From NCBI GenBank assembly GCA_044356295.1, contig JBIKWN010000038.1:1-22352 (forward strand): a stretch of DNA of 22,352 nt, in the 5' to 3' direction. Below the pieces are notes generated by a model. That model searched no databases. It was not told where the DNA came from and was given only the letters and a program-made list of their open reading frames with translations. The stretch comes from Bdellovibrionota bacterium (lineage in GTDB: Bacteria; Bdellovibrionota_C; UBA2361; JBIKWN01). Below, in pieces: positions 13,260 to 22,352 of this stretch. Position 1 is the stretch's first letter; each line of letters starts with the position of its first letter. The position numbers were made by a program, and so were the translations under genes.

Positions 13260-13289
13260 TCCTTCGTGTCCTTCGCGACCTTCGCGTTA
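13260..13289 (+). repeat. Intergenic REP-like 9-nt-period repeat (CTTCGCGNN x3); unoccupied copy of the IS110 target
   Basis: TC-CTTCGTGTC-CTTCGCGAC-CTTCGCGTT-A lies between convergent purD and the TonB receptor gene. It is 28/30 identical to the reconstructed empty IS site (21088-21109 joined to 22345-22352). Confidence 0.85.
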
Positions 13290-19541: not shown

Positions 19542-19868
19542 TTATAGTAATCCAGTAATTGCTGCAACTAGTTTATCTTTTGGAACTGCACCGACGATCT
19601 GATTTACTTGTTTCCCACCTTTAAAGAAAACAAGATTTGGAATTCCTTTTACGTTGAAATCTGCAGGGGACTTTGGATTATCATCAACGTTTACTTTTAC
19701 GATTTTAATTTTACCGTCGTATTCATTTGCCAACTCTTCAAGCACTGGGGCAATTGATTTACAAGGACCACACCAAGGGGCCCAGAAATCTACAAGTACT
19801 GGCACAGCAGACTGTAATACTTCACTTTCAAAATTTGAGTCCTGAATTTCGCTAACTTTGCCCGCCAT
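19542..19868 (-). CDS. trxA: Thioredoxin
   Basis: VLVDFWAPWCGPCK active site, GIP cis-Pro loop, 108 aa. Confidence 0.97.
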   Translation of the reverse strand: MAGKVSEIQDSNFESEVLQSAVPVLVDFWAPWCGPCKSIAPVLEELANEYDGKIKIVKVNVDDNPKSPADFNVKGIPNLVFFKGGKQVNQIVGAVPKDKLVAAITGLL

Positions 19869-20185: not shown

Positions 20186-21046
20186 ATGAGCCATAAAATA
20201 TTTACAGTTGATTTCGTCGGACAGGATTCGAGTTTAACCCTCGCACTTAGCTCAAAAAAGATTAGTGATTCTGAAACTAGTTTCAATCAGTGCTACCTGA
20301 GGCTTGAAGATGAATTTAGTATACCGTCACTTCGAAGTCGCTACAGTGCTGAAGCTGAAAATCCTCTTCATCAGTTAGAACATCACTTAATGAGACTTTC
20401 TCAAAACGGTGAATTAGGAACGAGTGAAATTATTTTTGGATGTTACTCAGATCCATTCTTTCCTTTTCAAGGTAAGTTTGATGTTTCCATAAAAGCATTG
20501 GAGTTATTCGCTCGGTATGTTCCTGGGCATTTAACGATTCAAACAAGGTCACCACTTCTTGTTATCGCACTTCCTGTTTTAAAAAGATTAGGAAACAGAG
20601 TCACTGTTTCTGTCGCTGTAGAAACAAACGATGAAACTTCTGTTTACCGCTATACTCCTGGGCTCCCACGTATAGAAGAGCGCTTGAAAATGGTAACTGC
20701 ACTCCGTCGTTTTGGGATTGAAACAGCTATTCAGGTTGCTCCGGTCCTACCCTATGGAGATTGGAAAAACGACGCACAAAAATTTGCTCAAACACTAATC
20801 GAACACGCTGATTTCATCACTGTGCTTGCATTTAATACATTGATAGAAAAAGAGGGACTATCAGCACGCGCAGTGAAAAATCAAACAGGTGCTGCTCGGC
20901 TAGCAGAGGACAGGAAGTTCCACTGGCTCAGAGCCGACAGCGCCAACCCCTTACTGAACGCGATTGAAGCAATTGATGGCGCTAAGTTAAAAGTCCCAAC
21001 AAGAACTTTTCAAACAAATCGTCAGCTTACATTTTTTGCGGCATAG
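20186..21046 (+). CDS. Radical-SAM-like protein related to the SPL/PA0069/Rv2578c group, lacking CxxxCxxC
   Basis: IFGCYSDPF, LTIQTRSPL, TPGLPRIEERL...LRRFGI...VAPVLP and C-terminal RQLTFF. Only one Cys (QCYL) in the cluster-binding region. Confidence 0.7.
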   Translation: MSHKIFTVDFVGQDSSLTLALSSKKISDSETSFNQCYLRLEDEFSIPSLRSRYSAEAENPLHQLEHHLMRLSQNGELGTSEIIFGCYSDPFFPFQGKFDVSIKALELFARYVPGHLTIQTRSPLLVIALPVLKRLGNRVTVSVAVETNDETSVYRYTPGLPRIEERLKMVTALRRFGIETAIQVAPVLPYGDWKNDAQKFAQTLIEHADFITVLAFNTLIEKEGLSARAVKNQTGAARLAEDRKFHWLRADSANPLLNAIEAIDGAKLKVPTRTFQTNRQLTFFAA

Positions 21047-21119
21047 AAAGCATAGAAGCATAGATATAAGGAGTAAATTTTGTACAATCCTTCGCGTACT
21101 TCGCGACCTTGTATATAGA

Positions 21120-21331
21120 AAGTATCACTTTATTAGGGGTACACTTTTAAGGTGTGTGGGTAATGTGACAGTTCGAATCGTGCCCTGTTTGTAATAAACG
21201 CCGCGAAGCATGAACGTCACATTACTTTCTTTATCTGCTCGAACAGTCGCTAGAACGTGCACTAGGGAGAGATTATCCCCCTAGGATACGCACTGTTCGC
21301 ATTCGCAAGTAAGAGCTTATAAAGCTTTTTT
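21120..21331 (+). ncRNA. Putative bridge RNA of the IS110 element (5' hairpin, target-binding loop, donor-binding loop); ends approximate
   Basis: Stem TAATGTGAC-A-GTTC (21161-21174) / GAAC-GTCACATTA (21212-21224) encloses TCGTGCCCT and CGCGAAG. A second stem (CTTTAT..GCTC / GAGC..ATAAAG) encloses ACAGTCGCT and GCAAG. These segments match the target and donor junction sequences. Confidence 0.85.
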
Positions 21332-21361
21332 CCACACAGAATACATAAGGAGAATATCAAT

Positions 21362-22327
21362 ATGAAAAACGAAACGGAAGTATTTGTTGGCATAGATGTC
21401 AGTAAAGATTGGCTGGATGTTAATTCTGGTAGAGCTTGGCGAGTAGCGAATACATTTTCGGGTGTAAAAAAGCTGATAAAAGAACTCTCTAAGTTAAATC
21501 CAGTACTTGTAGTATTAGAGTCAACTGGAGGCTATGAAAACTTAGCACTTGAAGCTTTATGGGAGGCTAAGATTGAAGTTGCTAGGGTAAATCCAAGACG
21601 TACAAAATGTTACGCAAGAGCACTTGGTAAAGAAGCAAAGTCTGATGCTATAGATGCTGATATGCTAAGGTGCTTTGCTATGCAAACACGTCCTGCACCA
21701 ACCCCAGCCCCAACTGCCGAGGTTAAAAAACTAAAATCTCTTATTAATAGAAGAACTCAACTGATTACTATGAGAACTGAGGAGAAAAACCGAGTAAAAA
21801 ATCCTATCTCCTGCCCACCCATAAAACGTCACATACAAAAGATGATTAAATTTATCACTGCTGAAATTATTCAGCTTGAAGAACAAATTGATATCATTAT
21901 TAAAAATTCCGAGACACTTAATGAAAAAGCCCAAGTGCTCCAACAAGAAACTAGTGTAGGACCTATTCTGACTATGACTCTTTTGGCGGAGCTGCCCGAG
22001 TTAGGAACAATCTCTCGGCAGCAGGTTGCGGCACTGGTAGGAGTTGCTCCTTATACTAATCAAAGTGGTACTTTTGAGGGGAAAAGACCCATCAGAGGTG
22101 GCAGAAAGCATATTAGACACATACTCTATATGGCTACCGTCTCTGCCGTGAGACGAAATCAAAAAATTAAACAATTCTTCCTCTCCATGGTCAGACGAGG
22201 AAAGCCTAAAATGATTGCTCTTATTGCTGCTATGCGTAGGTTGATTGTTACTCTTAATGCGACTCTTCGTGACTTTTATTCTAACAAAAATCTCAGAAAT
22301 GCAGATTTGTTAGAAACACATGCTTGA
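21362..22327 (+). CDS. IS110-family transposase/recombinase (DEDD RuvC-like plus Tnp domain)
   Basis: VGIDVSK (D), VLESTGGYE (E), KSDAIDA (D,D), VGVAP...QSG (catalytic Ser), GGRK.IR..LYMA, A.IAAMRRL. AAGGAG RBS at 21347-21352. Confidence 0.96.
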   Translation: MKNETEVFVGIDVSKDWLDVNSGRAWRVANTFSGVKKLIKELSKLNPVLVVLESTGGYENLALEALWEAKIEVARVNPRRTKCYARALGKEAKSDAIDADMLRCFAMQTRPAPTPAPTAEVKKLKSLINRRTQLITMRTEEKNRVKNPISCPPIKRHIQKMIKFITAEIIQLEEQIDIIIKNSETLNEKAQVLQQETSVGPILTMTLLAELPELGTISRQQVAALVGVAPYTNQSGTFEGKRPIRGGRKHIRHILYMATVSAVRRNQKIKQFFLSMVRRGKPKMIALIAAMRRLIVTLNATLRDFYSNKNLRNADLLETHA

Positions 22328-22352
22328 CTTCTTATACAGTCGCTTCGCGTTA

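Follow-up and report, generated by a model that had tools for sequence, protein, structure and literature searches.

How does a small mobile element of an uncultured bacterium find the places where it inserts? The question is raised by the right-hand end of a contig from a Bdellovibrionota genome (GenBank assembly GCA_044356295.1, contig JBIKWN010000038.1) that has 38.6% GC and occurs in lake-water metagenomes. The whole contig, 22,352 nucleotides (nt) long, is called the window here, and all coordinates are positions on it. Nucleotides 21110–22344 form an IS110-group insertion sequence (IS) of 1235 bp with a single open reading frame (ORF), and this is very probably an intact element that moves by recombination guided by a bridge RNA. 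An earlier note, made from the sequence alone, had proposed such a system of the IS621 type, and the features that define it at the sequence level are found at this locus with the exception of one handshake position. The analysis establishes the anatomy of the element, its conservation, the covariation of its stems and guides, the presence of copies at sites of the predicted kind, and the integrity of the catalytic residues. Statements about IS621 are drawn from two reports (PMC11208160 and PMC11208158). From left to right, the element and its flanks comprise the following features.

21101–21109, plus strand: occupied left target TCGCGACCT, composed of the left target TCGCGAC (21101–21107) and the core CT (21108–21109); two copies of the element have differing flanks at this place.
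21110–21361, plus strand: non-coding left end (LE), 252 nt, beginning with TGTATA, the inverted repeat of TATACA at 22333–22338.
21362–22327, plus strand: recombinase gene, 321 amino acids, catalytic residues D12, E53, D95, D98, and S235-G236 (from Pfam, NCBIfam, alignment, and PDB homology).
22336–22344, plus strand: right end, composed of the left donor ACAGTCG and the core CT (from junction sequences).
22345–22352, plus strand: right target TCGCGTTA, whose continuations differ on contigs C81 and C101.

The boundaries follow from a search of the element against its own assembly. The first 90 query bases (window 21100–21189) recur where contig C29 ends, the last 127 recur where contigs C81 and C101 start, and the sequence beyond each of these matches is unrelated. 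The left junction reads TCGCGAC-CT in the window (contig C22) and TCGTGTC-CT in C29, followed in both by TGTATATAG, and the right junctions of C81 and C101 are identical (ACAGTCG-CT followed by TCGCGTTA). Hence CT stands at every one of the four joints, and a target duplication at none. Because the flanks differ, the element occupies at least two genomic sites, and it is because of this repetition that the window and the contig stop at 22352. The start of the LE is shared by 73 related loci, where CT is followed by T, C, or A and then by GTAT. Beyond the stop codon the right end has only 17 nt, compared with the 252 nt of the LE. A long non-coding LE with a short right end is the arrangement of the IS110 group and not of the IS1111 group (PMC11208160), which on sequence grounds places the element in the former.

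The recombinase belongs to a large family, and the claim of an intact IS110 recombinase holds. Both Pfam domains, PF01548 and PF02371, score above their cutoffs (E of 7e-22 and 5e-17), and the NCBIfam model NF033542, named “IS110 family RNA-guided transposase,” gives 183 bits against a cutoff of 140. A phmmer search of PDB finds the chains of IS621 (8wt6) and ISCro4 with E about 7e-27 over residues about 7–297, and the catalytic residues align with those of both. An alignment of 37 relatives has no variation at D12, E53, D95, D98, and G236 and at least 90% conservation of S235; in IS621 the DEDD motif and the serine–glycine loop make up the active site (PMC11208158). A ribosome-binding site, AAGGAG (21347–21352), lies 9 nt ahead of the ATG. 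ORF, ribosome-binding site, and catalytic residues are all intact. The nearest protein besides the window's own is 76% identical (in a collection of 5.8 billion sequences, among 8000 candidates scored), and at least 7938 of these candidates have an E of 1e-30 or better. The length of 321 residues, which had been called compact, is the usual one in the family, IS621 itself having 326 (PMC11208158).

The second component of such a system is an RNA encoded by its LE. No Rfam 15 family matches the region (the top match is an irrelevant snoRNA, E = 0.49), and a covariance model, R1, was therefore built. A single-protein search of genome contigs gave one weak match of 26%. The relatives used have recombinases 40–56% identical to that of the window and come from same-phylum genomes, 12 of 124 of which match at an E of 1e-55 or better (own genome included), and from metagenome contigs, which gave a further 80 loci. 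R1 rests on 15 aligned upstream regions, with stem-loops defined by RNAalifold, and has 146 positions and 21 base pairs. It finds 91 matches in 90 of 95 sources, and every primary match lies directly upstream of a recombinase gene and on the same strand. Among the metagenome loci that did not contribute to the seed, 73 of 76 match, four of these being truncated where the contig stops. R1 fails to match five sources, two of them distant loci (L005 and L012) and three lacking the upstream DNA (L033, L035, and L097). Within the window, R1 matches 21151–21317 with 101 bits and has no second match there or elsewhere in the genome. The elements of the RNA are as follows.

21126–21154, plus strand: 5′ stem-loop, CACTTTA/TAAGGTG; best fold 21126–21132/21148–21154, −7.7 kcal/mol, z = −1.2.
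21158–21227, plus strand: target-binding stem-loop (TBL), outer stem 21158–21175/21211–21227, inner hairpin GTTTG/TAA/TAAAC at 21187–21199.
21178–21186, plus strand: left target guide (LTG) TCGTGCCCT, in the sense of the target top strand and so pairing with the bottom strand.
21202–21208, plus strand: right target guide (RTG) CGCGAAG, exact reverse complement of CT plus TCGCG (22343–22349).
21209–21210, plus strand: TBL handshake CA; donor position 7 (G22342) is a possible partner of C21209.
21237–21316, plus strand: donor-binding stem-loop (DBL), outer stem 21237–21240/21313–21316, from covariation.
21243–21251, plus strand: left donor guide (LDG) ACAGTCGCT, identical at 9/9 positions to the right end 22336–22344.
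21305–21309, plus strand: right donor guide (RDG) GCAAG, forming four Watson–Crick pairs and one G-T with the core and left end, CTTGT.
21310–21311, plus strand: DBL handshake TA; U21310 is unpaired with target position 7 (C21107).

The region 21115–21335, which the earlier note had proposed to fold, is strongly structured (RNAfold, −68 kcal/mol, z = −4.2); it forms two long stem-loops, and none of 200 shuffled sequences is as stable. The 5′ hairpin drawn there exists, with modest stability in the window, and most relatives have one as well (z below −2 in 31 of 63); the placement given for it, 21140–21156, corresponds to an alternative fold. The TBL outer stem had been put in the right place and is in fact longer than drawn, and the inner hairpin GTTTG/TAA/TAAAC sits where expected. 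In the DBL, the inner stem joins GAAC (21253–21256) to GTTC (21295–21298) and encloses a long extra hairpin (21257–21293). This extension of about 40 nt is found only in the window and in L007, a 56%-identical relative and the closest among the genome relatives; 89 other aligned RNAs are devoid of it. The minimum-energy fold of the single sequence was rejected as the functional loop structure, as covariation favors the form with open guide loops, the one that had been drawn.

Relatives retain these stems through compensatory changes in most of the pairs. In the 91-row alignment (A3), 93.3% of cells at the base pairs are paired, versus 73.2% in shuffled alignments and 31–50% when partners are slid out of register, and changes on both sides are seen in 18 of 21 base pairs. 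They affect all 12 pairs of the two TBL helices, where 92–96% of cells are paired, and six of the nine pairs of DBL helices 3 and 4. Two loci show departures from the common arrangement. In L065, the start of the TBL and the left guide occur twice in tandem about 110 nt before the RNA match, suggesting that part of the left end has been duplicated. L080 has a second and weak match to R1 (1745–1885, 22.4 bits), on the strand of the recombinase gene and downstream of it, which possibly represents the left end of a degenerate neighboring element.

The guides had been identified with their correct positions, and they match DNA on both sides of the element. LTG agrees at 7/9 positions with the occupied site of the window, the mismatch at position 4 being a possible rU:dG wobble on the bottom strand, and at 8/9 with TCGTGTCCT (13264–13272), which is the actual left flank of the C29 copy. 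RTG matches 7/7 at both right junctions, and the pairing of RDG with CTTGT, like the 9/9 identity of LDG, is as the earlier note had described it, one of the five RDG pairs being a wobble. The core dinucleotide recurs in all four segments, as CT closes LTG and LDG and AG closes RTG and RDG. The published guide strand rules for IS621 and its orthologues agree with this arrangement (PMC11208160, PMC11208158).

As a measure of chance we used the non-cognate pairs of related elements. The guide tests cover 86 loci with a full-length R1 match. The left boundary was set by the core followed by T, C, or A and GTAT, independently of the target guides (67 loci with enough flank), and the right boundary by the match of the DBL to the DNA past the stop codon (84 loci, 76 with enough flank). 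The 9-nt left target plus core, in its best ungapped placement on the 5′ side of the TBL, matches at 6.90 of 9 positions on average for an element's own flank and at 4.48 for non-cognate flanks (n = 67); a match of at least 7 is reached by 42 of 67 own flanks and by 171 of 4402 non-cognate pairs (3.9%). The reverse complement of core plus right target matches the 3′ side of the TBL at 6.95 of 9 for own flanks and 4.62 for the others (n = 76), with at least 7 in 61 of 76 versus 187 of 5674 (3.3%). Four controls with the wrong strand sense or the wrong side give the same values for own and non-cognate pairs (3.7–4.2 in both). Donor guides behave similarly. The first base of the LE finds its complement in the RDG base preceding the invariant AG in all 66 loci with letters there, in three states (T:A in 57, A:U in 7, and C:G in 2), and LDG positions 1–7 are identical to the right end in more than 12 donor types, with the matched donor site lying 6 nt past a TTGA.. 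box in 69 of 84 loci. Thus the TBL tracks each element's own insertion site and the DBL its own ends, which is the covariation that had been suggested as a check.

These data bear on two explanations that dispense with a guide RNA. One holds that the structured LE is a mere cis-acting leader for the translation or stability of the recombinase mRNA and that the protein alone picks the site. The region does separate a promoter half from the start codon, IS elements commonly have structured 5′ leaders, and RNA–protein and RNA–DNA contacts are inferred at this locus. A leader, however, offers no explanation for a TBL that copies the element's own left flank on its 5′ side and is antisense to the right flank on its 3′ side, in 67–76 loci and with flat wrong-sense controls, nor for RDG and handshake bases that covary with DNA positions outside the RNA; in addition, the IS621 RNA is necessary and sufficient for specificity in vitro (PMC11208160). 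We regard this explanation as very improbable. The other takes the matches for repeats at the DNA level, the 9-mer of the LE being a second, protein-bound copy of the right end and the target-like segments being captured pieces of REP-like (repetitive extragenic palindromic) sequence, without any RNA. Formally, LDG and the left donor are indeed a 9-bp direct repeat inside the element, and RTG, the only minus-strand copy of CTTCGCG in the window, resembles a repeat unit. Yet the flanking stems keep their pairing by the compensatory changes described above, as a folded single strand would, the target-like segments vary with the unrelated target of each relative, also in genomes lacking the 9-mer repeats, and the left and right guides have opposite strand senses, as expected of an RNA pairing to the bottom and top strands. 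This makes a purely DNA-level origin of the matches extremely unlikely.

A bridge RNA is further expected to carry handshake bases, of which the one beside RTG pairs with donor position 7 and the one 3′ of RDG with target position 7 (PMC11208158). For the first TBL handshake base, pairing with donor position 7 holds throughout (80 of 80 loci), and in four loci both sides have changed. The DBL handshake is compatible with pairing in 53 of 67 loci.

Several points weigh against an active, RNA-guided element in the window. Its DBL handshake is among the 14 of 67 that are incompatible, and U21310 could in addition form a wobble with the element's own donor G, an arrangement that in IS621 disfavors or slows strand exchange (PMC11208158). 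LTG has no perfect site in the genome, eight sites with one mismatch (the class of the C29 copy), and 96 with two (the class of the window copy), and its position 6 is mismatched at both occupied sites. The claim that the system has its own specificity is thus true, with the qualification that its guides are imperfect for every genomic site. The minimum-energy fold of the lone sequence closes both guide loops in part, through a 5-bp pairing of LTG with RTG (21178–21182/21202–21206), which costs 6.6 kcal/mol to open, and a pairing of ACAG in LDG with CUGU, which costs 4.4 kcal/mol; the complementarity of LTG and RTG is a consequence of the tandem repetition in the target. Alignment A3 follows the R1 structure, to which it was fitted, and many of its loci are kin, some near-identical, so that the shuffle statistics overstate independence, though the slid-partner control and the number of pair types remain clear. 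In relatives, the match to LDG itself served to locate the right end, which makes the comparison of left donor and LDG partly circular, although the site so found keeps the spacing to the TTGA.. box given above. At the locus, contigs of four lake-water DNA runs contain no circle junction, empty-site joint, or loose end, assembled contigs being prone to drop rare forms and the right flank in the window having only 8 nt. A search for RNA sequencing runs that contain the element found none. Finally, transcription, binding of the RNA by the protein, and the chemistry of the reaction are carried over from IS621 by analogy, and we count this against the case as well.

Some of these points would be explained if the element were a genuine bridge-RNA element by descent that is now poorly active or inactive, its guides and handshake having drifted and its copies being relics. 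The imperfect LTG, the handshake U21310, and the self-pairing of the guides in free RNA are all in line with this, as is the low mismatch tolerance of IS621 (PMC11208160). On the other hand, at least two copies at different sites were collapsed by the assembler as identical sequence, the element is also identical in the contigs of the four lake-water runs, and the ORF, ribosome-binding site, and catalytic residues show no damage. Natural IS110 guides are often 0–2 positions off their site, and the natural site preferred by IS621 itself contains a non-canonical pair at position 4 (PMC11208160). Likewise, other bases at the DBL handshake still permit recombination by IS621, whose wild-type handshake guides are themselves suboptimal (PMC11208158). 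We therefore consider decay of the element unlikely; the handshake, the self-pairing, and the unproven activity sustain it as an explanation and leave the identification itself untouched.

The landing site recurs in the genome, and the window contains an unoccupied copy of it.

13261–13289, plus strand: unoccupied landing site of three 9-mer units, with the exact 14-mer TCGCGACCTTCGCG at 13273–13286.

The uninterrupted succession of left target, core, and right target (TCGCGAC-CT-TCGCG) has 83 exact copies in the assembly, or 85 counting overlapping units. It forms part of REP-like palindromes whose arms consist of three 9-mer units (…CTTCGCGTA CTTCGCGAC CTTCGCGTT…). The period of 9 nt equals the left target (7) plus the core (2), and each unit starts with the CT core, so that recombination could potentially occur at every unit junction of an arm. 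The outermost of these junctions is the one used in both insertions. The neighboring junction, TCGCGTA-CT-TCGCG, has 74 copies, carries an extra mismatch at position 7, and is unused, which fits a choice based on the guide. An inverted arm lies within 80 nt upstream in 35 of the 50 target copies with enough DNA on that side, another 33 copies being at contig ends. The copy of the element in the window is in a single-arm repeat without inverted partner, and therefore a stem-loop is not required here. The REP-like family (CTTCGCGNN) is found at 13261–13289 and 21090–21109 of the window and on contigs C1, C2, C4, C6, C12, and C23, among others. CTTCGCG occurs 469 times in the genome, which also has 180 tandem unit pairs, and many contigs stop in these repeats.

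Part of this IS110 clade lands in tandem 9-mers of unrelated genomes. The left target resembles the right one (at least 5 of 7 positions) in 7 of 60 loci, compared with about 0.7 expected. Tandem 9-mer targets of the CTNNGYG type occur at L007, L075, L054, and L046 and in the window (L008, L011, and L088 by eye). One may speculate that IS110 recombinases acting on two target-like units, by target–target or half-match recombination, create, expand, or homogenize palindromes of 9-mer arrays, an idea that we hold to be quite improbable.

How the RNA would be made is suggested by two sequences that are far apart in the integrated element.

21112–21117, plus strand: −10-like hexamer TATATA, half of a putative promoter that is complete only once the right and left ends are joined.
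22324–22329, plus strand: −35-like hexamer TTGACT, overlapping the recombinase stop codon.

When the ends are joined, TTGACT and TATATA are 17 nt apart. In 69 of 84 loci, a TTGA.. box is spaced from the donor as in the window, and both hexamers have fixed positions in relatives. Promoters rebuilt over the circle junction are known to drive the RNA of IS110 elements (PMC11208160), and by analogy with these the pair would be a circle-junction promoter that fires after excision. A scan of the integrated locus for promoters and terminators gave one promoter-like site versus 3.1 expected and nothing convincing; its sole terminator-like site is the target repeat itself.

Together, these features outline a probable cycle. 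Upon excision, the ends would join and bring TTGACT and TATATA into a sigma-70 promoter, from which the LE would be transcribed into an RNA of about 200 nt and, further on, into the recombinase mRNA. The RNA would fold into the 5′ hairpin, the TBL, and the DBL. In the donor loop, ACAGUCGCU and GCAAG would hold the joined ends of the element (ACAGTCG-CT-TGTAT), and in the target loop, UCGUGCCCU and CGCGAAG would hold genomic TCG(C/T)G(A/T)C-CT-TCGCG, at the outermost unit junction of a 9-mer REP-like palindrome. A tetramer of the 321-residue DEDD/serine recombinase would then cut both DNAs after the CT core and swap strands, and this exchange would insert the element without duplication. Whether guides can be reprogrammed was also raised by the earlier note; by analogy with IS621, they may be.

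IS621 of E. coli is one of the nearest known counterparts (PMC11208160, PMC11208158; PDB 8wt6). The two elements share both protein domains and the catalytic residues, an LE-encoded RNA that combines a 5′ hairpin with a target and a donor loop, the CT core, promoter halves placed so as to meet over the circle junction, a REP natural target, and tolerance of a non-canonical pair at target position 4 (PMC11208160), as well as the handshake base adjoining RTG (PMC11208158). They differ in that the protein similarity is remote (phmmer E = 7e-27 over residues 8–297), in the guides and the target, in the extra DBL hairpin of the window, in its DBL handshake base, which is non-complementary to the target, and in the organization of the target as a tandem 9-mer array, which makes LTG and RTG mutually complementary. 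With the whole element as query, blastn finds nothing in any complete E. coli genome, and hence the link to IS621 rests on protein homology and the published description.

Another relative is the ISMno7 family element of the Methylobacterium nodulans ORS 2060 plasmid pMNOD02, annotated as IS110-like, whose protein is about 41% identical over residues 1–304. It has a full-length R1 match (57.8 bits) immediately upstream of the transposase gene and differs in host phylum, GC content, guides, and donor. No published bridge-RNA work naming ISMno7 was found, the literature search not having been aimed at it. Among IS110 family elements, ISPpu9 and ISPpu10 of Pseudomonas putida resemble the element of the window in their insertion into conserved intergenic palindromic copies, with REP or stem-loop targets. 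For ISPpu10, a preprint describes a stem-loop 5′ of the target as an extra determinant of specificity; the window's own copy, in contrast, has no inverted partner, and the likeness rests on descriptions of the targets.

The element is an ordinary further member of IS621-type bridge recombination, of which the RNA class, the rules, and the programmability were published in 2024, and the name of the NCBI model NF033542 already marks the protein family as RNA-guided. Close relatives may stand among the thousands of predicted orthologues in the supplementary tables of PMC11208160. The finding leaves knowledge of the mechanism unchanged. What it adds is a fully dissected natural example from an uncultured member of the Bdellovibrionota, with both ends, two occupied and many empty sites, guides, and handshakes mapped; the engineering of bridge recombinases could use it as an extra orthologue. 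For the 9-mer-array palindromes of this genome, a first concrete role emerges, since they provide the landing pad on which an RNA-guided insertion sequence settles.

One more feature of the LE is found just 3′ of the DBL.

21326–21331, plus strand: run of six T, a possible 3′ end of the small RNA, from sequence only.

A terminator after the DBL was dropped as a feature of the family, four or more T within 25 nt being present in only 8 of 90 relatives. Upstream of the element, a 286-residue ORF (20186–21046) has a sub-threshold match to Radical_SAM (21 bits versus a cutoff of 29.5), and a 108-residue ORF on the minus strand (19542–19868) contains a WCGPC motif, suggestive of a thioredoxin.

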